This document shows, piece by piece, positions 35,827 to 48,984 of a stretch of 64,000 bases of DNA. The stretch spans positions 900 to 64,899 of the forward strand of contig DVIC01000029.1 of the NCBI GenBank assembly GCA_018711545.1, written 5' to 3'. A model generated the notes under the pieces. It was not told the DNA's origin, ran no database searches, and saw nothing but the letters and a program-made list of their open reading frames with translations. Made by a program: the position numbers and the translations under genes. Origin of the DNA: Candidatus Fimenecus stercoravium. GTDB taxonomy: Bacteria > Bacillota > Clostridia > Oscillospirales > Acutalibacteraceae. Numbering within the stretch: position 1 is the first letter of the stretch; each line of letters opens with the position of its first letter.

Positions 35827-35851
35827 ATCGCCCCGTGCTTCCGCACGGGGC
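35821..35851 (-). terminator. intrinsic terminator closing the ten-gene surface operon
   Basis: Minus-strand GCCCCGUGC-GGAA-GCACGGGGC followed by GAUUUUUAG. It lies 69 nt after the stop of the last gene. Confidence 0.65.
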
Positions 35852-35919: not shown

Positions 35920-36873
35920 TTACACAGCGGTGTTTTCCTCTTCCTGCTGCTTCTTCTTTCTGCCCAGCAGGAAGAACAGGAACGGAATGCCGCCGAAGAT
36001 CAGCACGAGCGTTGCGCCCGCCGCCACGGGATATTCCCGGATCAGCGCACCGGTCTGGGTGATGATCGGGTTTTCCGTAATGGGCACTTCGGGCTCTGTG
36101 CCGGGGACAAGGGTAACGGTACCGTCGTCATTCACGACGAAGTCAAGCAGGATGCTTTCCGTGCCGGCAGGAACAGTCACAAGCTGTGTCCCGTCGGGGA
36201 GCTTCGTCACGGTGACTTCCGTTGCGGTCTCGCTTTCGGTCACGGAGAAATTCGCCGTGCCCGCCACCGTGCCGTCGGGGTCATAGACGGTCACGGTGTG
36301 GTAGCCGTCTTTGATGTCGTCCACGGCATATTCGCCGTCTTCGTTCGCAGCGGTCTCGATCTCGCCGAAGTCAAAGACCAGCCCCGCGTTCGGATACGGA
36401 TCGTCGCCGCGGTACACGCCGCCGCTTAAGGCGTAATGCACACATTCATCCGCGCCCTTGTTGGGATCCTCGGGGTCATATTCGGGATCAGAGGGGTCGA
36501 GGGGCTTCGCGTCCTCGCACTTTTGGAATGTAAACACGATGTCCACATTCGTATGCACGCCGGAAAGTATCAGCTGCCCATACTGCATCTGATCCGTCAC
36601 GTCCTCGCCGTTGACGGTGACGCTCTGGAGGTGATCCGTCGCCTGACAGATCACGCTGAGCGTAACGTCGTCAAAGCGTTCCACGGTAAGCGTCGCGCCG
36701 CTGGGCAGGACCTCGCCGCCATACAGGACATAACCGCCTTCGTTGTAAGTCACGGTAATTTCATGCTCGCCGGGTACGACCGTGCTTACCTCTACGCTGC
36801 CGAGTCCAAAGACGCCGAGCTGCATCGCGCAGCACAGCAGCAAGGCCAGCACGGCACTGCAAGCTTTTTTCAT
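35920..36873 (-). CDS. secreted protein with C-terminal TM anchor and basic tail (possible atypical sorting signal ITQTG); last gene of operon
   Basis: Signal peptide MKKACSAVLALLLCCAMQLGVFG. Beta-rich modules, including a CarboxypepD_reg-like YRGDDPYPNAGLVFDF...GEYAVDDIKDGYHTVTV. C-terminus ...PIITQTGALIREYPVAAGATLVLIFGGIPFLFFLLGRKKKQQEEE. Confidence 0.8.
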   Translation of the reverse strand: MKKACSAVLALLLCCAMQLGVFGLGSVEVSTVVPGEHEITVTYNEGGYVLYGGEVLPSGATLTVERFDDVTLSVICQATDHLQSVTVNGEDVTDQMQYGQLILSGVHTNVDIVFTFQKCEDAKPLDPSDPEYDPEDPNKGADECVHYALSGGVYRGDDPYPNAGLVFDFGEIETAANEDGEYAVDDIKDGYHTVTVYDPDGTVAGTANFSVTESETATEVTVTKLPDGTQLVTVPAGTESILLDFVVNDDGTVTLVPGTEPEVPITENPIITQTGALIREYPVAAGATLVLIFGGIPFLFFLLGRKKKQQEEENTAV

Positions 36874-36929: not shown

Positions 36930-37412
36930 TTAAACGGCCGTATAGGTGACGGTGTAGGTCATGGTGCCGGTGTATTCGCCGACTGCAACGCCCTCGAAGG
37001 AAGAAACGGTCGCATCCAGATCTACGGTTTGGGAGGTCACATAGCCGGAGAAAGACTGCGCTTCAGTCGTGCCGGTAAGAGCGAAGGTCAGGGTGTCGTC
37101 GCCGACGGGATCCGTGTTCATCACGCCGCCGTCATTCGCAGCCGCAGCGACCTGAAGCGTCGAGCCTGCCACGAGGTTGCACGATACGGTGTAGTCGGCT
37201 GTGCCGCTGCTGGCGCCGTCGTTGTTCCACGGGATCGCAACGCTTGCGGGAACGGTCACGGTGTAAGTGTCATCCGCCGCATCCACAACGGTGTAAACGT
37301 CGATCGTTTCGGTCTGATCCGTATCCTGGGTGATGGGGTTCGCTGCAAAAGCAAGAACGCTGACAGAGAACATCATTACAACTGCAAGTGCTACTGCTAA
37401 AATCTTTTTCAT
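36930..37412 (-). CDS. small secreted paralog S7 (160 aa) of the operon-specific family
   Basis: MKKILAVALAVVMMFSVSVLAFA signal; YTVTVPASVAIPW...LTFAL...GEYTGTMTYTVTYTAV; own SD. Confidence 0.85.
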   Translation of the reverse strand: MKKILAVALAVVMMFSVSVLAFAANPITQDTDQTETIDVYTVVDAADDTYTVTVPASVAIPWNNDGASSGTADYTVSCNLVAGSTLQVAAAANDGGVMNTDPVGDDTLTFALTGTTEAQSFSGYVTSQTVDLDATVSSFEGVAVGEYTGTMTYTVTYTAV

Positions 37413-37460
37413 GGTTTTACTCCTTTATCAATTTCGATTTGTTCTGTTGAGCGCTTGTAC

Positions 37461-37934
37461 TCAAACGACTTCGACGGTGAAGGTCACGGTGTCGGTATAT
37501 GCCCCAACGGGGACGTCATCCCAGCCGGTGACCGCGATGGCCGTGGAACAGTTGGCGGACTCGACCTCGTCGGTCGTCACGTACGCCGCGTCTGCTGCAT
37601 CGCCCGACAGCGTGTACAGCAGGTTATCCGTGCCGTTGGTCAAGTTGCCGCTCGTCTTATTGAGCGAGATCTGAAGCTGCTCGCCAATGTTAAGCTGCGA
37701 GGTGTACGACCAGTTGATGGAGTCGCCGCCGGTCGTACCGTACCACGGAATGCTTACCGTAGCGGGGATCGTCACCGTAAAGTTCGCGGCAGGCTTGCCG
37801 TTTATGTCCGTCGTGAGGGTCACAACGTCAACCGGCGTTCGACCCGGCTGTGTAATGGTCTGGCTCGCAAAGGCGGGCACACAGACCGCGAACAGCATGA
37901 CAAGTGCAAGCGCAACAGAGAGAACCTTTTTCAT
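37461..37934 (-). CDS. small secreted paralog S6 (157 aa)
   Basis: ATG at 37934 follows AAAGGAG. MKKVLSVALALVMLFAVCVPAFA; FTVTIPATVSIPW...LLYTLSGDA...GWDDVPVGAYTDTVTFTVEVV. Confidence 0.88.
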   Translation of the reverse strand: MKKVLSVALALVMLFAVCVPAFASQTITQPGRTPVDVVTLTTDINGKPAANFTVTIPATVSIPWYGTTGGDSINWSYTSQLNIGEQLQISLNKTSGNLTNGTDNLLYTLSGDAADAAYVTTDEVESANCSTAIAVTGWDDVPVGAYTDTVTFTVEVV

Positions 37935-37973
37935 AGGCCTGCTCCTTTTCAAGAGTTATGTTGCGCCGTGCGA

Positions 37974-38459
37974 TCAGACGATGTCGACAACTTCGACCGT
38001 GAAGGTCAAGGTGTCGGAGTATGCCCCAACCGGAACATCGTCCCAGCCCGAAACAGCGATATTGATCGATTTCTCCGTCAAAGCGCAAACCGCCGCGCCG
38101 GTCGTGAACGCTGCGCCGACGGCATCGCCCGACAGGGTGTATGCCAGGTTATCCGTGCCGTTGGTCAAGCTGCCGCTCGCTTTGTCCACCGAGATGCTCA
38201 GCTGTTTGCCGGCTTCGAGCTGCGAAACATAAGACCAATCCAGCGTGTCGCCTTCGGTAGTGCCGCCCCACGGAATGTCTACGGTAGCGGGGATGGTCAC
38301 GGTGAAGCCTGCAACGGGGTTGCCGTCTTCATCGGTCGTCAGGGTCTGGAGCGTGGTGTCGCCCGTGCCGCCGTTGGTCGCGATATCCGTCGCGAACGCC
38401 GGAACACAGACCGCGAGCATCATAACGAGTGCAAGTGCGATTGCTAAAATCTTTTTCAT
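37974..38459 (-). CDS. small secreted paralog S5 (161 aa)
   Basis: ATG at 38459. MKKILAIALALVMMLAVCVPAFA; FTVTIPATVDIPW...LAYTLSGDA...GWDDVPVGAYSDTLTFTVEVV. It is the closest relative of S6. Confidence 0.88.
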   Translation of the reverse strand: MKKILAIALALVMMLAVCVPAFATDIATNGGTGDTTLQTLTTDEDGNPVAGFTVTIPATVDIPWGGTTEGDTLDWSYVSQLEAGKQLSISVDKASGSLTNGTDNLAYTLSGDAVGAAFTTGAAVCALTEKSINIAVSGWDDVPVGAYSDTLTFTVEVVDIV

Positions 38460-38526
38460 GGTTTTCCCTCTATTCATTCAGAAATTTTTTGTTGTACGCC
38501 AAAGCGCTTTGTTATGCGGTTTCGAT

Positions 38527-39006
38527 TTACACGTCCACGATCGAAGCCGTGAAGGTCAGGGTGTCGGAATACTCGGAAACAGGTGCTGCATCCCAAGCTT
38601 CCGTATCCACGCAAACGGTAAATGTGCAAGCCTGCGCATCCACCACGGGGCCGTCCATGACGGCGAAGCTGTTCTGGATCCAATACGCCAGCGTCAGGCC
38701 GTTTGTATCGGTCATCAAGAGGTCGCCGGTCGGATCATCCACATCTACGCGAACCGCCTTGTTCGGTGCAAGCTGCGAGGTAACGGTGTATTGGAAGTCG
38801 GTGCTGGTCGCGTCCCACGGAACGATGTTTTCCGCCGGGATGGAAACGGTGAAACCTGCGGCTTCCTCGCCGTCTTCGTTCTGCGTCGAAGTCCTGACAA
38901 CTGATTCGCCTGTACCGCCGTCAGCCGCAATATCTACAGCGAACGCCGGAACGCTGACCGCCAGCATCATGACGAGTGCGAGAGCAACTGCTAAAATCTT
39001 TTTCAT
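38527..39006 (-). CDS. small secreted paralog S4 (159 aa)
   Basis: MKKILAVALALVMMLAVSVPAFA; FTVSIPAENIVPW...LAYWI...EAWDAAPVSEYSDTLTFTASIV. Confidence 0.88.
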   Translation of the reverse strand: MKKILAVALALVMMLAVSVPAFAVDIAADGGTGESVVRTSTQNEDGEEAAGFTVSIPAENIVPWDATSTDFQYTVTSQLAPNKAVRVDVDDPTGDLLMTDTNGLTLAYWIQNSFAVMDGPVVDAQACTFTVCVDTEAWDAAPVSEYSDTLTFTASIVDV

Positions 39007-39043
39007 AGGTTTTCTCCTCTTTTCGGATTATGTCGTGCTGCTG

Positions 39044-39523
39044 TTAGATCGCAACAAGCTCTGCCGTGAAGGTCAGCTCGTCGGCATATTCCGAAACAAC
39101 AGCCGCATTCCAAGCCGCTTCTGCAACATTGACCGTGTAGGCAAACGCCTGTGCGTTTACAACGGGTGACGTTGTAATGCCGGTCGTATCCGCCAGCGTA
39201 TATGCCAGCGTGTAGTCGTTCTCGTCGGTCATCACATAAGCCTTGTCGGTATCATCCACCGTGACCTGCACGCCCGTGTTAGGGCCAAGCTGCGAGGTGA
39301 CGGTGTAAGTAAGGCTGGTGCTCTGCGCATCCCAATAGATTGTATTTTCCGCAGGGATGGTCACGGTAAAGCCTGCGCCGTCTTCGCCGCCTGCGGTCTG
39401 GGTAGAGGTCTTGATAATCGCCGTACCCGTGCCGCCGTCCGTTGTGATGTCTGCCGCAAACGCGGGAACGCAAACCGCCAGCATCATAACAACGGCAAGC
39501 GCCATAGCCAAAAGTTTTTTCAT
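39044..39523 (-). CDS. small secreted paralog S3 (159 aa)
   Basis: MKKLLAMALAVVMMLAVCVPAFA; ADITTDGGTG...FTVTIPAENTIYW...LAYTLADT...AAWNAAVVSEYADELTFTAELV. Confidence 0.88.
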   Translation of the reverse strand: MKKLLAMALAVVMMLAVCVPAFAADITTDGGTGTAIIKTSTQTAGGEDGAGFTVTIPAENTIYWDAQSTSLTYTVTSQLGPNTGVQVTVDDTDKAYVMTDENDYTLAYTLADTTGITTSPVVNAQAFAYTVNVAEAAWNAAVVSEYADELTFTAELVAI

Positions 39524-39559
39524 AATGGTTACTCCTCTCTAAGTGTTCTCAAGCAACGC

Positions 39560-40054
39560 TTACCCGACCAAGATCTCTGCCGTAAAGGTCAGGGTGTCGC
39601 TGTAAGTGCCGATCACGGCTTCGTTCCAGTCCTCTTCGGTCACAACCACATTCAGTGGAACGGTCACTGCCGGATAAACGTTGGGCTCCGTAGTCGCATA
39701 GTCCACGCCTTCGCCCATCAGCGCATACGGCAGGGGAAGTTCGACGCCCGCCTCAGGTGAATAGGACATGTAGCCCTGCTCGCCCGCTACGGTGACGGCC
39801 AGCGTCTCGCCGTAAGCAAGGTGGGTCTCCACCTCATAAGAGACGTCATAGGACGCTGCACCCCACGGGATCTCCTGATCCGCCGGGACCGTCACGGTGA
39901 AGCTTCTTGCATCATCGCCGCCGGAGGTCGTGGTCGCGGTCTTGATGATCACGGTGCCCGTGCCGCCGTCCGTCGTGATGTCTGCCGCAAAAGCGGGAAC
40001 GCACACGGCAAGCATCATAACAACAGCAAGCGCAATAGACAATACTTTTTTCAT
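39560..40054 (-). CDS. small secreted paralog S2 (164 aa)
   Basis: MKKVLSIALAVVMMLAVCVPAFA; ADITTDGGTG...FTVTVPADQEIPW...LPYALMGEG...EDWNEAVIGTYSDTLTFTAEIL. Confidence 0.88.
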   Translation of the reverse strand: MKKVLSIALAVVMMLAVCVPAFAADITTDGGTGTVIIKTATTTSGGDDARSFTVTVPADQEIPWGAASYDVSYEVETHLAYGETLAVTVAGEQGYMSYSPEAGVELPLPYALMGEGVDYATTEPNVYPAVTVPLNVVVTEEDWNEAVIGTYSDTLTFTAEILVG

Positions 40055-40092
40055 GGTCTTGCTCCTTTTATAAAGTTTTTTGACTTACGATT

Positions 40093-40545
40093 TTAAGCTG
40101 CGACATATTCGGCGGTGAAGGTCAGCACATCCGCGTGCCTGCCGGCAGCCGCCTGCGCCCACTGATCCTCGCTCACGGCAACGGACAGCGGGTAGACCGT
40201 GTCGATTGCGCCGGGCGCGAACACCATGGCGTCTGCCCCTGAAAGCGTATAGCCGATCGTCTTCGTTGCGTCCGCATCATTGACGAGGTTGAACGCATTC
40301 TGCGAATCGACCGTAACGCGTACGACGTGGTCATACGCAAGCTGCAGCTTGCTTGCCGTGACTTCCCCGAGCGCCTGTTCGGGCGCTTCCCAGGGGATCA
40401 CGGTGTCGGCGGGGATAGAGATCTCATAAGCTGCCTGGTCGCTTTGCGTGGAGATCTGCATGCTGCCGACGTCCTCTGCGAAGGCGGGCAGTGCGCAGAG
40501 CGCCAGCAGTACGACCGCCAGCCCCACGCAAATCATTTTTTTCAT
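40093..40545 (-). CDS. small secreted paralog S1 (150 aa), the most divergent member
   Basis: MKKMICVGLAVVLLALCALPAFA; YEISIPADTVIPW...IGYTLSGAD...DQWAQAAAGRHADVLTFTAEYV. Confidence 0.85.
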   Translation of the reverse strand: MKKMICVGLAVVLLALCALPAFAEDVGSMQISTQSDQAAYEISIPADTVIPWEAPEQALGEVTASKLQLAYDHVVRVTVDSQNAFNLVNDADATKTIGYTLSGADAMVFAPGAIDTVYPLSVAVSEDQWAQAAAGRHADVLTFTAEYVAA

Positions 40546-40618
40546 CCGACATCATCTCCTTTTTCGGAATTTCGTATTTTCATGGCGTATATCGTTAACC
40601 TTTTCAGGTGAACTTGCC

Positions 40619-43600
40619 TTACGGCGTTGTTGTGCCGTCCGAATAGGTGACGGTGTAGGTGATGGCGTCCGTCGCGCGGTATTCGCCGAGGGGTTTGCCC
40701 ACCCACTCGTCATCCTCTATTGTAACCGTGCTATAGCACTGAATCGAACTTCCCGCTCCCGGACCATAGTAAGTGGAGTCCAGATCACTGATGCTGCCGG
40801 AAATGGTATCCGTCGTGCCGGCGTTCGTCATGGTCAGGTTGTTGCCCTCCGCATCGACTGCGTTGGTCGCCGTCCCTTCCACTCGAAGCGTAGCGTCTGC
40901 GCTGAAGTTGTAGGAGGTCTCTGCGTAGTAATTGGTGGTTCTCGCGCCCCACGGGATCTGGACTTCCGCGTCCACCGTGACGGTGTAGAAGTCGCCGGTC
41001 GCGTAGTTGACTGTTAGCTGCTTTACATCGGTCGCTTCACGCAGGATGCCGTTGCGGTCGGTGTACTGGTAGGTGTAGGTCAGCGTCAGCGTATCGCTTA
41101 ATGCGCTGGTGGTCGGCTGTGCATTCGGGACCGTCACGTGCAGGGCGTTGTCCTGTCCCAGCGTTACATTGCTGATGGCTTGCCCGAACGTCACTGCGCT
41201 GCCGCCGAACGTAAGCGTGTACGGAAGGGTGATCGTGCCGTCTGCCGAGGTCAGATTGCCGCCCTTCGACGATGTGATTGTCAAGGTGCCCGTGCCGGAT
41301 GTGTCGGTCAGATAGCGCTCAAACTGTGTGAGTGTGTAAACGGGGTCGTTTGCGCTGTTGACCGCACCGGTCGAGGTGTCTCTATTGTCATACGAGAGAT
41401 CCATGGTGCTCGCCGACAGCGTTGCGGACACAGCGGGCGTCAGATCATACATCTGCTGGATGACGTCATAGAGCTCCGCTACGTCGTGGTAGGTAGCAAT
41501 GAGCGACTCATACTCGGCGATGGTGTTGAGGAGATTTGTGCGGTCGGTCGCCGTGAACGTGCCGTCTGCCATCTTCTGCGCGGCGTCCTCGTACTGCGCC
41601 TGATACTTATCCAAAAGCTGCACCACGCCGCCGTTCACCGGCTGACCGCTTGCATTGGTATAGGTATCGGTATTATTCAGCAGCTTTTCGCATGCCTCGG
41701 AGACATTTTCCACGCCGTCGCGGATGCTGCCGTCCGCCATGAGAACTTTGGCGAAGTAGTTGTTGTTCCGATTGAAATTGGTGAGTGCCGTTTCGAGCGT
41801 TGCAATATTTTCGTCGCTAACGGAAATAAAGAAGCCTTCATTGACCGTCGCACCGTTCTCCGTCCAGGAGCCGTAGGGCTTGGTCTTGTCGTAGGTACCG
41901 CTCGTCGGGTAGACGTTGCCGTCGCCCGCGACGCCGAGACTGCCCGTTGCCGCCCTGTCGGGATACAGCTGCGACATGGTCTGGTACAGGGCGTCTGTGC
42001 CGCCCGTATACAGCGAGCTCAAGAAGGTCAGCGACTGTGTGAGTGCGGGTTCGAGCGAAGCTACACAGCGCATCGCCGCATTGTAGGCGTTGAGGAACTG
42101 CCGGCTCTGCTCAGGGAACTGATCTTTTTGGCTCTGCGTCCATTTCGAGTAAGAGTTATTGTACCACTCGATGATCTGCGCCGCGCTCTCCGCCGTCAAG
42201 CCGTAGGCAGCATAGTTCACCGCGTCCGCCGTACCGTCCGTACCGTCCGTATCGACCACGCCGGGATACGGCAGGTCATATTCGCCGGAGGTATTGCCGT
42301 CCGCGACCGCCAACGTGCCGCTCAAGCCGAGATTGTCAAAATAGGTGTTAAAGAGTGTGGAGGGCGTCCATGCGGCTGTATAAGCCGAAATCTCCTCTGT
42401 GGTGGCGTTTTGATACGCCTGCAGCTGCGTGTACGCCTGCTGCGTAGAGTGGAAGCCCTTTTCCGCGTCGGTCAGCGCATTATACAACAACTGTGCATTG
42501 TTCAGCGCCTGCATGAACTCGGTGCTCCATGCCGTGCTGTTGGCGGCACTCGGTTCGAGCGCGGCAACGGCTTCTTCAAATTCGTTCTGGTACTGGGATT
42601 TGATGCCCAGCACTTCGCCGAAGGTCGAGTGAACCGTCGTACCCGTATTATAGTCCGACGTGTAGCCGAAGCCGATGTTGTCGATGACAAAGGTCTTGCC
42701 CTCGAGTGCGTCCGACGATGCAGCACTGTTGTCCGGGGCGATGCCGATGTTCACGCGGTAAATGCTGTTCAGCCCGGCTGCATATTCGCTGAGCTTGACG
42801 GCGCCCGTGCCGCCAGTGGTCGCCTGCGTCCAGTTGTCCTTGAACTGGTAGAGGGGGATCATGATATATCCCTCGTAGCCGGCGAGCGTCAGGCCGTTGG
42901 TCGTCACGTCGGAGCTAAAGTAGTTTGCGCCGTGCCCGCTGGCGGAGCAGTCGACCCACTCACCGGTGCGCATATCCATCAGATAGATGCTCTTATTGGC
43001 CTCACTGTCGCCCATGGCAAGGGTAAAGTCGTTCGTGCCCGAGCCGTCGCGGTGCGAGCCCGTTGTGATGGACGCGGTCAGCTTGAAGTCGGAAAGCTGC
43101 GAGAAGTCCGCGTAGAATACCAAACCGAGCGGGAAAGTGCTGCTCGCTGCGTTGCCGTTGGGACCCTCCAGCACATCGCCGAGGTTCACAATGCCCATGT
43201 TGTGCGTCATGGCATCGTTGTTATCGCCGTCCAGGGCGGAATAGCTGTCGAGCGAGACACTCAGGATATTATACATGCCGTTCCCGTTGCCGCCGCTGGA
43301 GCCGCTGCCGTTATAATACGAAGAATTGATGGCGACCGCAGCGCCGTGCGTCCCGTTAAAGCCCGCGTCCGTCACCGTCGCCTTGGTGCCGTTAATCAGC
43401 GTGTCCCCTCTTTCGGTGCCGTCCACGATGGTACCGTTCTGCATGGGATCGGCATAATTGCCCGCACTGGGACTGTTCGCATCCAGCTGGCTGTTGTCCC
43501 AAGTGCCGAGGAAGGTGCGGGTGGTGGAGCCATAGGTCAAAAAGCCCTTGGTATAGCGATAGTCGCCGTATCTCCACATACCGTTGGGGTCGTTTTCAAA

Positions 43601-46048
43601 CAAATCGGATTCCGTGCCGATTGAAAGCGATTCAAAATCGTTGAACAGCACAAATTTGTTGCGCGCCAGCGTGTTGCCCGCGACGTCTAAGTCGGTGCTC
43701 GAATCGACACCGACCAGGGCGACGTATTCGAGCAGCTTTTGCTCCTCCGCCAAAGAAAGCGCATTGAGCTGTGCCAAACTCAAACGCGTATAGAGCGAAT
43801 ATGCGCGAACGATCTCGGTCTCCAGCGCGTCGCTGACAGAGGAGACCGTAGAGGGATCGGGCAGCTTTTCAAGGGAACGCACCAGCTGCGCCACAAGCCC
43901 CGTAGCCCCTTCGTCCGCCGCGTTTTCATAGCCCGTGTCGTTGTTGGACGGATAGGTGTAGGTGCCGTCGTCATTTTGAATGATCGTGCCCGCTTCCACG
44001 CACAGGTCGCGCGCCGTGGTGAATTTTGCCCACACGGAGGTAAGCCCCAGCGACGCTGCCGTTGCGGCTAAATTCTCTTCCGAAAGGAAGTCGTTGCCGA
44101 CCGAGGAACCGGCGTAGCCCTGCCGGTAGCCGTCAAGCATCTCGGAAATATACTGCACCGCACGGTAATCGCCCTCGTCCGGGAAGGTGATCAGCGCATC
44201 GATCTGATTGAGGATCGCGCGCGGGATTTCGGTTTTCTGGTCGTAGTAATCGGTCAGCGGGAGACCGTACTCGCCTTCCGTCATGTCGTTCGGATAATTG
44301 CCCTCCGACTTATAGAACATGACGGAATCCATGTAAAAGCTGTGGTTGACGCTGTCGGCGCTCATGTTTGTGTATGAGAAGCCCGCGCCGCAGATGTCGT
44401 CAAGCGCCTTATAGCCGTTTTCGCGGTTTAAAATCACCGCGTTGCCCTCGGCATCCTTATAGACTGTACCGTCAGCGTTTAACTGAACATACGCTTTATT
44501 GGTCATATCCGTGTTGCAGTCGTCTCTGCTCGGTCCGACAGCAAGCATGGAAGCGCCCCAATTGGGCCTTTCCAAAGCCGCATAATGGTTCGCGCCCGTG
44601 CTCGGATAATCATTGTGATACGGCATGGTGTAAACACTGTTGTTCGGATTGCCGGTTTCCTCGTCTGCCGAACTGTTGCCGCCAAACTCATTTACATCTA
44701 CGTCTATGGAAAGCTGGCGGTATTGGAGCAGCAATGCTTCGGAAATCGGTGTGCCCGCCGGGTCAACCAGCACCTGTTCGCTCAACAGGACTTTATTGTC
44801 AAACTGTGCTTTTTTTCCACTCTCGTTGCCGCCGCCGAGATCTTCCGCCAAACCATTTCCGCCGAAGCCGAAGTTATCGTTGCGCGCTTCCGCATACGTG
44901 GGGGTCGTAGAACAGACAAATTGGACAGGCACACGGATATAGCCCTTGTAATTCGCAAGATCAATTCCGCCGTTTTCAAGCGCGACCGACTCCCACGAAC
45001 CGTCGTCTGCCTGAATATAGACATAGCCGTCGTTGCCCGTATATCCTTTGGTGGAATAGGTCACGGTGCTGTAGTCGTCATCATTGATAGAGCCATAGAG
45101 GTATACGACGCCCTGCCCCCACAAGTCGTCCCAATAGTATTCCTCGTACCGCTTGCCCTGCGTTTTCAGTTCAAAGGCAAGACCTTCGACCGAGACCTGG
45201 GAGAAGTCGAACCAGAACCAGATTTCCTCGGCATCCTCCGCGATCCAGTGCTGGCGTGACCATGTCGTGTTAAAGGACTGGTCGCCCGTGCCAACCACCT
45301 GGAAGCGATAGGCGCCCGAGCCGCCGTCGCCCGCATAGGGTGCCTGCCCGTAGAAGCTAAGCTGGTTCGCGCCCGCGCTGCTGGAAGCGATGTAATCCAG
45401 TCTGCCGCCGCCCGCGCCGTTGTCCGAAACATAGCCCATATTATTATTGTTCCGAGCTTCGAACATCAGCATTTCGCGCATGCCCGTCTCGTTTTCGACA
45501 AGCGGGGTATACGCTTCCTCGTCATATTCAAAGCGCGGTACGTCGGAAACGGTGGTCGTGATTGCGTCCGAGACCCAGCCGGTGCTGTCCTGTGCAAGGA
45601 CCTCCACGCTCAGGCGGTGCGTGCCGTCCATTGTGATGCCTGCGGACTCCAGCTGTTCTGCAGGGAAGGTCACTTCAAAGGTGTTCTCTACCGCGAAAGT
45701 GACCGCAGTCGCGTCCCGCGTGATCTTTGCGGAAGGCACATCCTCCGTCGCCGGGTCGTCGTGCACCTGTGTATACACCCCTAAGTCATACAGCGTTATG
45801 TAATAGGTCGCTATAGACTTGGTGATGTACTCGGTGTTCACGGTCGCCTCGGGAACGGAAACCGTCACATCCCCTTCCTCCGTTTCCCACGCCCACAGGG
45901 TCGCGTCCTCCGCGAACGTCGGGGTCGGGTCATACGTCCCCGCGCTCAGAGGTGCCGCAAGTGCCAGGGGCAGGGAAACCGCCACCAGAATTGCACTCAT
46001 CAAAAGCGCGGTGACACGTTTCCAGACTTTCAACCTCTTTTCTTGCAT
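40619..46048 (-). CDS. 1809-aa secreted multidomain giant protein ending in two tandem copies of the small-paralog domain; no recognisable wall or membrane anchor
   Basis: ATG at 46048 follows GGAAAGGAG. Signal peptide MQEKRLKVWKRVTALLMSAILVAVSLPLALAAP. Two internal similar beta-sandwich-like modules and helical segments. C-terminus ...FYTVTVDAEVQIPW...DEWVGKPLGEYRATDAITYTVTYSDGTTTP. No LPXTG motif and no terminal hydrophobic tail. Confidence 0.88.
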   Translation of the reverse strand: MQEKRLKVWKRVTALLMSAILVAVSLPLALAAPLSAGTYDPTPTFAEDATLWAWETEEGDVTVSVPEATVNTEYITKSIATYYITLYDLGVYTQVHDDPATEDVPSAKITRDATAVTFAVENTFEVTFPAEQLESAGITMDGTHRLSVEVLAQDSTGWVSDAITTTVSDVPRFEYDEEAYTPLVENETGMREMLMFEARNNNNMGYVSDNGAGGGRLDYIASSSAGANQLSFYGQAPYAGDGGSGAYRFQVVGTGDQSFNTTWSRQHWIAEDAEEIWFWFDFSQVSVEGLAFELKTQGKRYEEYYWDDLWGQGVVYLYGSINDDDYSTVTYSTKGYTGNDGYVYIQADDGSWESVALENGGIDLANYKGYIRVPVQFVCSTTPTYAEARNDNFGFGGNGLAEDLGGGNESGKKAQFDNKVLLSEQVLVDPAGTPISEALLLQYRQLSIDVDVNEFGGNSSADEETGNPNNSVYTMPYHNDYPSTGANHYAALERPNWGASMLAVGPSRDDCNTDMTNKAYVQLNADGTVYKDAEGNAVILNRENGYKALDDICGAGFSYTNMSADSVNHSFYMDSVMFYKSEGNYPNDMTEGEYGLPLTDYYDQKTEIPRAILNQIDALITFPDEGDYRAVQYISEMLDGYRQGYAGSSVGNDFLSEENLAATAASLGLTSVWAKFTTARDLCVEAGTIIQNDDGTYTYPSNNDTGYENAADEGATGLVAQLVRSLEKLPDPSTVSSVSDALETEIVRAYSLYTRLSLAQLNALSLAEEQKLLEYVALVGVDSSTDLDVAGNTLARNKFVLFNDFESLSIGTESDLFENDPNGMWRYGDYRYTKGFLTYGSTTRTFLGTWDNSQLDANSPSAGNYADPMQNGTIVDGTERGDTLINGTKATVTDAGFNGTHGAAVAINSSYYNGSGSSGGNGNGMYNILSVSLDSYSALDGDNNDAMTHNMGIVNLGDVLEGPNGNAASSTFPLGLVFYADFSQLSDFKLTASITTGSHRDGSGTNDFTLAMGDSEANKSIYLMDMRTGEWVDCSASGHGANYFSSDVTTNGLTLAGYEGYIMIPLYQFKDNWTQATTGGTGAVKLSEYAAGLNSIYRVNIGIAPDNSAASSDALEGKTFVIDNIGFGYTSDYNTGTTVHSTFGEVLGIKSQYQNEFEEAVAALEPSAANSTAWSTEFMQALNNAQLLYNALTDAEKGFHSTQQAYTQLQAYQNATTEEISAYTAAWTPSTLFNTYFDNLGLSGTLAVADGNTSGEYDLPYPGVVDTDGTDGTADAVNYAAYGLTAESAAQIIEWYNNSYSKWTQSQKDQFPEQSRQFLNAYNAAMRCVASLEPALTQSLTFLSSLYTGGTDALYQTMSQLYPDRAATGSLGVAGDGNVYPTSGTYDKTKPYGSWTENGATVNEGFFISVSDENIATLETALTNFNRNNNYFAKVLMADGSIRDGVENVSEACEKLLNNTDTYTNASGQPVNGGVVQLLDKYQAQYEDAAQKMADGTFTATDRTNLLNTIAEYESLIATYHDVAELYDVIQQMYDLTPAVSATLSASTMDLSYDNRDTSTGAVNSANDPVYTLTQFERYLTDTSGTGTLTITSSKGGNLTSADGTITLPYTLTFGGSAVTFGQAISNVTLGQDNALHVTVPNAQPTTSALSDTLTLTYTYQYTDRNGILREATDVKQLTVNYATGDFYTVTVDAEVQIPWGARTTNYYAETSYNFSADATLRVEGTATNAVDAEGNNLTMTNAGTTDTISGSISDLDSTYYGPGAGSSIQCYSTVTIEDDEWVGKPLGEYRATDAITYTVTYSDGTTTP

Positions 46049-46210
46049 CGTCTGAAAGCTCCTTTCCGATTTTGGATTCCGGAGGCCGCAGCCCCGGTCT
46101 ACGAATACCGCCAAAGGCGGAGATATTTGACAAAGTTTGCTTGGATACTGTTTCGTCGGATACGATTGGGCGGGTTTCTGCGCGCCCACGGCTCCTTTGA
46201 AAACCTGATG

Positions 46211-46325: not shown

Positions 46326-47141
46326 TTATTCCGCTTCTTCCGCGATGATGACCGTCTTGAAATCCATTTTGTTCAAGGGGCGCTGCTCGCTGTCAAAGCT
46401 GAAGGTGTCAAAATGCACCACGACGTCATATTCGCCCGCGTCGAGCGCCCGATCCAGCGTGAAGCGGGAGATCGAATAGCCCGGCGGCAGCAGATCCGAC
46501 GTATAGATCGTTTCGCCCGTGTCGGACAGGGTGATCGTGATCCGGAAATAGCAGGGGTTGACCTCGGGGTTGGAGAATATGTAATTCTGCTCGAGCTGCC
46601 CTGCGACGAAGTGCATTTCCGTAATGCCCGTGAACTTAATGTTCGCGCCGGCCGTGTCGATATGCTCGGGGACGTCCAGCTCCCCTTCGCCGAGCTGCGC
46701 GTTCGGGTCGACCACGCCAAGCGGCGCGGTGGTGGTCTCCGGCTGTGTGCTCGCTTCGACCGCCGCGCGGATGCCGAACGCAAGACCTGCGATGAGCGCC
46801 AGCGCCAGCAGCGCGAGCAAGATCCACAAAAGCAGCGTGTCGCGCATGACGGCGATATAATCGTTGCCGCCGACGGGCACGTAGCCCGCCACGCGCTTGT
46901 GCGCGAGCTTCGCGACACTGTAAACGATCTCCTCGCCCTCGCCGCCCGACGAAAGCGTACCGAGCTGCTCGCGTCCCGCGCCGATCTGCCCGCGGACGTT
47001 GAACCCGCCCGACGGGTACAGCGTCTTCATATCCTTGCGCTTGATATAGGAAACGGTAAAGTTTGCAGAAGAATTGTTATACGTCCCGCGCGCCTCGCCC
47101 GCGCCCGAATAATCTGCATGAAACAACAGGGGTTCTGCCAA
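46326..47141 (-). CDS. bitopic membrane protein (cytoplasmic ~100 aa, one TM, extracytoplasmic ~145-aa beta-rich domain); first gene of operon
   Basis: TTG start lies 7 nt after GGAGGT. TM is TLLLWILLALLALALIAGLAFGI (aa 102-124). The external part reads ...NPEVNPCYFRITITLSDTGETIYTSDLLPPGYSISRFTL...GEYDVVVHF. Confidence 0.75.
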   Translation of the reverse strand: MAEPLLFHADYSGAGEARGTYNNSSANFTVSYIKRKDMKTLYPSGGFNVRGQIGAGREQLGTLSSGGEGEEIVYSVAKLAHKRVAGYVPVGGNDYIAVMRDTLLLWILLALLALALIAGLAFGIRAAVEASTQPETTTAPLGVVDPNAQLGEGELDVPEHIDTAGANIKFTGITEMHFVAGQLEQNYIFSNPEVNPCYFRITITLSDTGETIYTSDLLPPGYSISRFTLDRALDAGEYDVVVHFDTFSFDSEQRPLNKMDFKTVIIAEEAE

Positions 47142-47208: not shown

Positions 47209-47238
47209 ATTATACCGTCTGCGGAAACAATTTGTCAA
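47209..47238 (-). promoter_or_regulatory. near-consensus sigma-A-type promoter of the surface operon
   Basis: Minus strand reads TTGACA (47238-47233)-18 nt-TATAAT (47214-47209), in a visibly AT-rich 47.16-47.39 kb spacer, ~65 nt upstream of the TTG start. Confidence 0.55.
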
Positions 47239-48174: not shown

Positions 48175-48984
48175 TTACAGCGTCGTGATGTCCACGTACC
48201 ACTGCATGCCGATCTTCACAAGCGTACAGGTGTAGTCATACGCCTCGCCGTTCGCTGTGTAGCTGTAAGTAACCTCACACACGTCCGCAACGGCGTCCGG
48301 CGAAAGGCCGAACTGCGCATAGGTCGCGCGCGCCTTGTCGGAGAGCGCATCGCGGTACGCGGCGGTCTCCGCATCGGAGTATTCGCGCGTCACTTCCACC
48401 GAAGTCTGCTCGGCGTCCACGCCGTTTGCGGCGCTGTAGACGGCCACACTCGCTTCAAAACAGGTGACAAGGTCATCCTCCACCGCGCTCAGCGCCGGCT
48501 CGCCGAACACCTGTTCATAGGTCTCGACATATTTCGCCACATACAGCGTCAGCACCGTATCCAGTGTCTTGTCGGTGTTGCTCGCGATGATGTCGGCATA
48601 ATACGCGTCCATCACGTCGGACATCTGATGTTCGAGCGCCCCGAGTTCTTCGGGCGTGCGCTCCGTCGTGCTTTCGCCCTCAGGCAGGACGGGCTTGATG
48701 TAATTGTCGCGGAAATAATTGCCGAGATACAGGTTTTGGATAAGCGTTGTGTATTTCAGTGAGTTGAAATCGTCCTTGCCCACGACCGCCGAAGCACAAT
48801 ACTGCTCGGCGACGCGCTCGGGATAGAACATGATGTACCGCGAACGGAAATAGGTCGCGCTCACGGTGACGAGAAACGCGACGACCAGGAGGATCGCCAC
48901 AGCCATATAGCCTTTGTCAAAGCGCGCGGTGGTCATGTCCTTTTCGACGATCTCTTCCGCCGGTTTTTTTGCTTTCTTCGCCAT
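48175..48984 (-). CDS. N-terminally membrane-anchored protein, family not recognised
   Basis: 269 aa. Lys-rich N-terminus, then TM YMAVAILLVVAFLVTVSATYF. SD GGAGGAGG lies within the end of the upstream transporter gene (3-nt gap). Confidence 0.7.
   Translation of the reverse strand: MAKKAKKPAEEIVEKDMTTARFDKGYMAVAILLVVAFLVTVSATYFRSRYIMFYPERVAEQYCASAVVGKDDFNSLKYTTLIQNLYLGNYFRDNYIKPVLPEGESTTERTPEELGALEHQMSDVMDAYYADIIASNTDKTLDTVLTLYVAKYVETYEQVFGEPALSAVEDDLVTCFEASVAVYSAANGVDAEQTSVEVTREYSDAETAAYRDALSDKARATYAQFGLSPDAVADVCEVTYSYTANGEAYDYTCTLVKIGMQWYVDITTL

Follow-up and report, generated by a model that had tools for sequence, protein, structure and literature searches.

The question raised by this locus is how a secreted protein of some 1,800 residues is related to the series of small secreted proteins encoded directly after it, and what the two might build together. 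The locus lies in a 64,000-nucleotide stretch of contig DVIC01000029.1 of Candidatus Fimenecus stercoravium (assembly GCA_018711545.1), referred to here as the window, whose numbering is used throughout. Ten genes on the minus strand, from 47238 to 35830, are enclosed there by one strong promoter-like site and one terminator-like hairpin: a gene for a 271-residue protein (up271), one for the very large protein (the giant), seven for small proteins (S1 to S7) and one for a protein with a transmembrane helix (the anchor). This set is an operon of an uncultured gut bacterium of the Oscillospiraceae/Clostridia, and its product is most likely a surface fibre or complex made from an unnamed family of immunoglobulin-like (Ig-like), pilin-type domains of ~135 residues. 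A first-pass annotation of the same DNA had proposed that the giant ends in two tandem copies of the domain found in the small proteins. This proved right for the last domain, D2, which is a certain copy, and overstated for the penultimate one, D1, which is a diverged relative only.

The mechanical open reading frame (ORF) of the giant runs to 46189 (40619..46189, minus strand), and its 3' end from 40619 to 41422 encodes residues 1590-1856 plus the stop codon, as had been annotated. Homologues of the giant are 1730-1825 residues long and their first residue corresponds to M48 of the ORF track (window position 46048; MQEKRLKVWKRV..., a signal peptide). Because the homologues begin at M48, the real giant probably has about 1809 residues including the signal peptide (40619..46048), and the residue numbers given below, which follow the ORF track, are ~47 higher than in the real protein. 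The mechanical ORF itself opens with a GTG 47 codons upstream of this likely true start (46048-46189), and the signal peptide opened by M48 is a typical one ending in ALA/AP.

To compare the C-terminus of the giant with the small proteins, we built a hidden Markov model (HMM) from the mature parts of S1 to S7. The HMM matched the giant at residues 1720-1850 over HMM positions 12-136, with a score of 44.7 bits and an E value of 9e-16, and the profile-profile comparison of D2 (40640..40999, minus strand, residues 1731-1850) with the small family by hhalign gave a probability of 99.3% and an E value of 3e-20; the HMM match includes part of the linker strand that precedes D2. The profile match was thus significant over the full length of the domain, the family being marked by a PA..IPW block, a Trp-containing helix and a Y.DT.T(F/Y)T last strand, and the giant chain stops 6 residues past the last strand of D2. 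A match at the same place, of 24-64 bits, was present in 119 of the 120 giant homologues listed, the exception being P0097, a shorter sequence of 1559 residues. When all six frames of the whole window were searched, the HMM matched the seven small proteins and the giant only. By sequence, then, D2 is a full member of the small-paralogue family of S1 to S7, which bears out the annotation of the last ~130 residues as the small-paralogue domain, and it is also among the most variable parts of the giant across its homologues. The accompanying statement that the rest of the giant has no similarity to the small proteins likewise held, since the only other HMM match scored −2.5 bits and a BLAST of the giant against itself gave no internal repeat. 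The body of ~1,500 residues had no match in Pfam, NCBIfam or the sequences of the PDB, and hence no adhesin domain was identified in it.

The similarity of D1 (41060..41431, minus strand, residues 1587-1710) to the small proteins was of another order. In the search of the whole giant, the HMM aligned with D1 by its C-terminal half only (positions 65-135), at 9.4 bits. Compared alone with the HMM, D1 scored 15.6-16.1 bits, a value reached by none of 2000 composition-preserving shuffles, the best of which scored 12.3 bits. Its hhalign score against the small-family profile was 25.8, with a null of 11.8±2.3 and 0 of 150 column shuffles as high (z about 6); the corresponding probability was only 20.8% (P 1e-3), and the direct hhalign comparison of D1 with D2 gave no significant similarity. 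The PA..IPW block and the Trp-containing helix are both absent from D1. We also modelled giant residues 1566-1856 with AlphaFold2 (AF2) from an alignment of 17 sequences, and obtained a predicted local distance difference test score (pLDDT) of ~90 for residues ~1585-1730, D1 included, and of 30-55 for D2. D1 was modelled as an Ig-like beta-sandwich in which the order and spacing of the strands parallel those of a model of S3, except that the S3 model has a short Trp-containing helix before its last strand and the D1 model does not. Residues ~1590-1712 had earlier been read as a family domain; of that reading, the alignment with the C-terminal half of the HMM stands, as does the missing PA..IPW block that it had noted, and the profile match is weak (20.8% by hhalign). 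Taken together, these weak but real signals make D1 a diverged relative that shares the type of fold, and not a second clean copy.

The model also bears on the junction between the two domains. The last strand of D1 is SDTLTLTYTYQYTD (model residues 132-145 as assigned by DSSP), and the end region of D1, LSDTLTLTYTY, was aligned by the HMM with the terminal Y.DTLTFT strand of the small proteins. After a turn of 5 residues follows a long strand, REATDVKQLTVNYAT (model residues 151-165 by DSSP; 41000..41044, minus strand, residues 1716-1730), which the HMM aligned with the strand conserved at the N-terminus of the small proteins. This arrangement suggests a hairpin in which the linker strand would pair with the last strand of D1 and complete that domain in cis.

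To place the fold among known structures, we compared the models with the PDB using Foldseek. For the C-terminal model of the giant, the first match was the two-domain tip adhesin CfaE in its donor-strand-complemented form, and further top matches were a CfaE-CfaB fusion, self-complemented CsuA/B, donor-strand-complemented EcpA, CsuE and AggA (E 2e-5 to 6e-4). The AF2 model of the mature part of S3, made from 73 sequences and with a pLDDT of 96.7, matched CsuA/B (top) and CsuE in chaperone complexes, the Csu pilus, CFA/I, N-terminally deleted PapE and the pilin domain of PapG, with E values of 1e-3 to 6e-2 and template modelling (TM) scores of 0.42-0.53. Over the two models, the leading matches were chaperone-usher pilins with TM scores of 0.42-0.55. 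At the level of sequence, no match above threshold was obtained with the chaperone-usher pilin families (Pfam Fimbrial, SCPU, DUF4402 and related families), and a search of PDB sequences with the small-family profile returned no pilin and nothing meaningful. The tendency of the Foldseek matches towards pilins agrees, nonetheless, with sub-threshold Pfam hints among the 73 family members, namely DUF4402 in 7 of them (best E 0.02) and SCPU in 4 (best E 0.15), both of which are archaic chaperone-usher pilin families. Although the scores are modest, the tendency is consistent, and the models point to a fold nearest to that of the chaperone-usher pilins.

The small-protein family extends well beyond this locus. 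An exhaustive profile search recovered 901 representative clusters at 50% identity, and we read the family-wide architecture from the best 150 of them. About 90% of these 150 are 150-200 residues long; the longer ones are giants of ~1700-1750 residues, fusions of BspA-type leucine-rich repeats (LRR_5) with the domain (462-473 residues) and an LRR-like fusion of 293 residues. In every credible multi-domain member among the best 150 the domain stands at the extreme C-terminus, never internally and never in tandem arrays, and the chain ends no more than 6 residues from the last strand of the domain in 137 of 143 representatives (median 2). One apparent member, P0376 (3,240 residues, with SprB repeats), was rejected as a low-complexity false positive, at 3.8 bits per stretch. 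Ahead of the domain, the small proteins carry a conserved N-terminal strand with the consensus I-V-K-T-x-T, in which T16 and T18 are at least 90% conserved in the 73 members, as are motifs of the first and last strands; in the alignment these three strands look conserved and the middle of the domain is variable. The LRR fusions (P0244, P0246, P0253 and P0243; loci L006 and L007) keep the N-terminal-strand sequence along with the C-terminal domain. The 8 kb around the gene for P0244 contain no small-family genes, which makes it an orphan, and its genome has a gene for a cohesin protein as well. Neither Pfam nor NCBIfam offers a model of the family, the homologues listed are labelled no further than 'hypothetical protein', and we found no paper describing it.

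Within the operon the seven small proteins follow the giant on the minus strand in the order S1 (150 residues, 40093..40545), S2 (164 residues, 39560..40054), S3 (159 residues, 39044..39523), S4 (159 residues, 38527..39006), S5 (167 residues by the ORF track, 37974..38477, with an internal MKKIL as its probable start), S6 (163 residues by the ORF track, 37461..37952, probably starting at an internal MKKVL) and S7 (160 residues, 36930..37412). All are matched by the small-family HMM, and each has 150-167 residues and a signal peptide ending in AFA. The N-terminal strand is separated from the first strand of the domain by 4 residues in S1 and in D2, and by ~8 Gly-rich residues in S2 to S6; a link of 4 residues is probably too short for the strand to fold back on its own domain. 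S1 and S7 differ from S2 to S6 in having a link of 4-5 residues in place of the Gly-rich loop of ~8, which hints that they may serve as adaptors at the two ends of the small-protein series.

The two remaining genes of the operon encode proteins of a different kind. The first gene, up271 (46326..47141, minus strand), specifies 271 residues with a single central hydrophobic helix, probably transmembrane, and a C-terminal domain of ~150 residues that would lie outside the cell; no match was found for it in Pfam, NCBIfam or the PDB at E values up to 10, and its role as an assembly factor is a guess. The last gene encodes the anchor (317 residues, 35920..36873, minus strand), which begins with a signal peptide and, at the mature N-terminus, has a strand that is conserved (xxLxTVVPxxHEITVTYNEGG); it continues with two beta-rich regions separated by Pro/Asp/Thr-rich linkers and with a conserved NPII(S/T)(Q/K)TGALIRE(N/Y)P motif, and ends in a C-terminal transmembrane helix and a basic RRKK tail. 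The linkers, of the PTDPDEPTT repeat type, differ in length by up to ~70 residues among homologues (P0387-P0506). The motif, helix and basic tail together look like a non-canonical sortase sorting signal, as judged from the sequence. The anchor had no Pfam match, none of its 120 homologues carried a precomputed Pfam domain, and a PDB sequence search with it gave nothing meaningful. More broadly, none of the ten operon proteins gave a match above threshold in Pfam or NCBIfam, and the operon had no megablast match in the plasmid collection. Among the genes that do not encode subunits there was no Pfam match of any kind, and neither a PapD-like chaperone nor an outer-membrane usher was found; the TLxTC sortase signature was absent from all ORFs of the window, and no operon gene matched Pfam Sortase.

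The ends of the transcription unit are well marked by sequence. The promoter-like site at its head (47209..47238, minus strand) has TTGACA and TATAAT with an 18-nucleotide spacer, matching at 12 of 12 positions, and the terminator-like hairpin lies just after the anchor gene (35830..35851, minus strand), with a 9-bp stem containing 8 G-C pairs followed by a T run.

We next examined 13 related loci; the relatives are metagenome-assembled genomes of uncultured Clostridia/Oscillospiraceae and 'Candidatus Fimenecus'. The order up271, giant, five to seven small proteins, anchor was found in 11 of the 13; on the contigs of the other two, L003 and L005, which end before or inside the giant and so do not reach the place of up271, the remaining genes keep the same order. 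Accordingly, up271 precedes the giant in 11 of the 11 loci whose upstream flank could be read, and the anchor is present in 13 of 13. The small proteins are orthologous by position: the small gene next to the giant is of the S1 type in every case, and S7 has its positional orthologue in the last small gene of L003, L004, L005 and L001. The best matches of S1 to S7 are their counterparts in L003, with 97, 65, 88, 83, 88, 85 and 93% identity, respectively, and S1 is the most conserved of them (97-98% identity in L003 and L004).

Comparison with L003 and with L004, an Oscillospiraceae chromosome (OZ007023.1), revealed a very uneven divergence, with mosaic stretches at 37400-41440 and 44430-44905; the identities that follow are those to L004. 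The flanks are 95-97% identical, and the flanks, up271, S1 and the anchor range from 90 to 98% overall. The di-domain of the giant (40634-41440), an internal segment of the giant (44430-44905) and S3 to S7 are, on the other hand, too diverged for blastn, with 35-49% amino acid identity. Since the di-domain and S3 to S7 have diverged amid near-identical flanks, the locus is mosaic and hypervariable, a pattern suggestive of an exchange of cassettes or of diversifying selection acting on exposed parts. An ORF of 269 residues (48175-48984, minus strand) that lies upstream of the promoter has no family match and is 98% identical in L004, and its conservation was not detectable beside the more distant operon in L001; it probably lies outside the module. 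An open frame of 828 residues (41138-43624, plus strand) runs antisense to the giant gene, and several more long antisense frames overlap the small genes; most likely all of them are shadow ORFs that result from the composition of the coding strand, and not genes.

To account for these observations, we favour, at a probability of roughly 0.5, a donor-strand fibre with the giant at its tip, assembled without chaperone or usher in a Gram-positive, single-membrane bacterium. The Clostridia, Oscillospiraceae included, are a group with a single membrane, and it is because of this, and because the operon encodes no PapD-like chaperone or usher, that the assembly would be chaperone- and usher-free. 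The fold of the family would end at strand F and lack a seventh (G) strand. The linker strand, equivalent to the N-terminal strand of D2, would complete D1 in cis, and D2 would be left open for the N-terminal strand of S1 to complete in trans. The next small protein would do the same for S1, and the series would continue in this way by donor-strand complementation, placing the giant at the distal tip. The anchor, membrane-anchored or possibly attached by a sortase, would donate the final strand and hold the fibre in place across the cell wall, and up271 would perhaps help the assembly. The giant would then be a cargo or adhesin, connected with the small proteins by way of its C-terminal domain; this view fits all the computed data and is plausible but unproven. 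The first-pass annotation had assigned it this part, and what supports the assignment is the true family domain at the C-terminus, the extreme C-terminal place of that domain in the other credible multi-domain members (the LRR fusions among them), its pilin-like fold and the conserved operon, against which stands the failure to find an adhesin domain in the body of ~1,500 residues. A more specific and tentative version, to which we give somewhat less credence, is a heteropolymeric donor-strand-exchange pilus of gut Clostridia, formed by distant relatives of archaic chaperone-usher pilins with no chaperone, usher or sortase, in which five to seven ordered paralogues would link an anchored base to a hypervariable tip of ~1,800 residues; the C-terminus of the tip would be a 'fused di-pilin' that shows the junction in cis, and unlinked cargo such as BspA-type LRR adhesins could be mounted through the same domain.

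In favour of the fibre stand the family membership of D2, the weaker signals for D1, the strand pattern at the junction of D1 and linker, the pilin matches of both models together with the DUF4402 and SCPU hints, the chains that stop close to the last strand, the conserved N-terminal strand with its short link in S1 and D2, the positional orthology of the small proteins, the conserved operon with its single promoter and terminator, and the C-terminal place of the domain in the LRR fusions. Several points weigh against such a fibre. Strand exchange in trans is something that we infer, and the pairing of D1 with the linker was deduced from the DSSP strand pattern of the model alone. The low pLDDT of D2 (30-55) may come from a hypervariable alignment rather than from an incomplete fold, and in the monomer model of S3 the N-terminal 27 residues are confident yet do not form a regular strand. 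The Foldseek matches have modest scores (TM 0.3-0.55), cross-matching among Ig-like folds is widespread, and the list for the C-terminal model contains, further down, PapD-like chaperones and sortase pilins as well. The LRR fusions keep the N-terminal-strand sequence with no pilin-like domain before it, which would suit a docking module and a fibre subunit equally, and the orphan fusion P0244 speaks slightly more for generic docking. Finally, no chaperone-like protein was identified in the operon, and the two domains of the anchor gave no significant hhalign match to the small-family, D1 or D2 profiles, so that the anchor is not a detectable member of the family.

The orphan LRR fusion, encoded with no small genes nearby, is at home in a reading where the shared domain is a docking module that binds the wall or the anchor non-covalently, in a non-polymeric surface complex like those built on WxL domains. 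The small proteins would then be free docking domains that organize or occupy a platform, and the giant and the LRR fusions would dock likewise. The architecture is indeed that of published clusters, with small proteins consisting of the domain only, a large protein with the domain at its C-terminus and a two-beta-sandwich protein of ~320-380 residues with a transmembrane helix (PMC9772566, PMC10599100), and AF2 work on WxL proteins also predicts the insertion of strands between partners, so that the strand evidence is compatible with both readings (PMC10599100). We nevertheless consider this reading unlikely, although it is the main rival: no Pfam match to WxL, DUF916 or DUF3324 was obtained at E values up to 10 among the 73 family members, the dual Trp-x-Leu motif is absent from the alignment, five to seven positionally orthologous small proteins with a conserved N-terminal strand exceed what a docking platform needs, and the nearest solved structural relatives are polymerizing pilins.

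The hypervariability of D2 and S3 to S7 between strains whose flanks are 95-97% identical would be expected of antigens under diversifying selection, and Ig-like domains are common as spacers. The C-terminal domains of the giant could on these grounds be a stalk or spacer with no joining role, akin to the small proteins through local duplication, and the small proteins could be independent, for example variable surface or decoy antigens. This seems improbable to us given the invariably extreme C-terminal position of the domain, with no internal or tandem case in the best 150 representatives, the strict gene order, positional orthology and single operon shared with a membrane anchor, and the apparent conservation of the first, last and N-terminal strands in a domain whose middle varies. 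A Gram-positive pilus assembled by sortase, in which isopeptide bonds would link the small proteins as pilins, carries hardly any weight in our assessment. The sortase pilins BcpA and CppA are among the weaker Foldseek matches of the C-terminal model (E about 2e-3), and the motif, hydrophobic stretch and basic tail of the anchor resemble a sorting signal. The small proteins and the giant, however, end 0-6 residues past their last strand, with no LPXTG-like motif and no hydrophobic or charged tail, and neither the TLxTC signature in the window ORFs nor a Pfam Sortase match in the operon was found. With no sorting signal on them, the small proteins as sortase pilins are effectively refuted; the anchor alone could be a sortase substrate.

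What is new here would be a surface assembly of pilin or docking type that has an unexpected host and lacks the known machinery. The Oscillospiraceae and related Clostridia are abundant gut commensals with surface structures that are almost undescribed. In the literature we found no description of a Gram-positive donor-strand pilus of this kind, nor of SCPU in Firmicutes. If the donor-strand fibre is real, the pilin fold and the strand-exchange logic of the Gram-negative chaperone-usher pili would also exist in Gram-positives by a different assembly route, with a bearing on the evolution of donor-strand pili. It would also offer a handle on adhesion and on strain specificity, because the tip of the giant and the shaft subunits differ strongly between otherwise near-identical strains. 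If the WxL-like reading is the true one, the logic of small, large and anchor proteins would also be served by a second domain family, unrelated to the first, in another class of Firmicutes.

To conclude, we compared the locus with known systems. Polymers formed by donor strands without chaperones are known in TasA, the archaeal bundling pili and cannulae (PMC9245690; bioRxiv 10.1101/2024.12.30.630787). TasA fibres, archaeal bundling pili, Sulfolobus threads and Pyrodictium cannulae resemble the proposed fibre in having subunits exported by Sec that polymerize by donor strands without chaperone or usher, and they are a precedent for the proposed route; they differ in consisting mainly of one major subunit of a different fold, and none was among the top 50 Foldseek matches of the giant C-terminus or S3. 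To our knowledge, none of them has a giant tip protein or ordered paralogous subunits. Neither the small proteins nor the giant had a Pfam match to TasA (Peptidase_M73), Ena (DUF3992) or F-ENA, none of which was among the top 50 Foldseek matches either; the anchor gave an insignificant match to 'Enas' (E 0.55). The F-ENA endospore appendages were rejected as a candidate, as their head-neck architecture (PMC11844507) does not fit and no Foldseek match was obtained.

The WxL clusters of Lactobacillales contain small proteins with the WxL domain only, large ones with it at the C-terminus and a membrane-anchored protein with two Ig domains, WxLIP (DUF916-DUF3324-transmembrane) (PMC9772566, PMC10599100). 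The logic of small, large and membrane-anchor proteins is the same in our locus, the adhesin-type domains of the large WxL proteins precede the WxL domain, and the hosts are gut commensal Firmicutes (PMC9772566, PMC10599100). Secreted small and large proteins that are encoded together and share a domain at the extreme C-terminus occur here as well, as an analogy only. In contrast, the domain has ~135 residues here and the small WxL proteins ~180, each cluster has five to seven small paralogues, whereas two WxL proteins in all is the commonest number for a WxL cluster, and an extra conserved membrane protein, up271, stands at the head of the operon. The WxL domain (PF13731) had no match at E values up to 10 in the 73 family members or the giant, and the two conserved Trp residues of the family are not in a W-x-L context; the anchor had no match to DUF916 or DUF3324 and lacks the conserved NQIDKxxxYFDLK motif of WxLIP. 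For lack of these matches and of the WxL motifs, the small family is not a member of the WxL family, though it may work similarly, and the comparison with CscC/WxL proteins that had been drawn earlier stands for the architecture and fails for the domains, with no Pfam WxL, DUF916 or DUF3324 match.

Another close likeness is to the chaperone-usher pili of Gram-negative bacteria, especially the archaic (sigma) Csu pili (CsuA/B, CsuE) and CFA/I (CfaB, CfaE). As in those pili, an Ig-like subunit of ~135 residues ends on its last strand, presumably F, and is preceded by a conserved N-terminal strand, a large putative tip protein carries a subunit-type domain at its C-terminus, and the genes of several putative specialized minor subunits keep a set order. 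The best structural matches and the sub-threshold DUF4402 and SCPU hints lie on the same side. The present system differs in its host, a Gram-positive, single-membrane member of the Clostridia, in an operon without PapD-like chaperone or outer-membrane usher, and in a sequence similarity that falls under every curated threshold. Its base would be a membrane- or wall-anchored protein, and its tip a protein of ~1,800 residues with two pilin-type domains, the first of which is apparently completed in cis.

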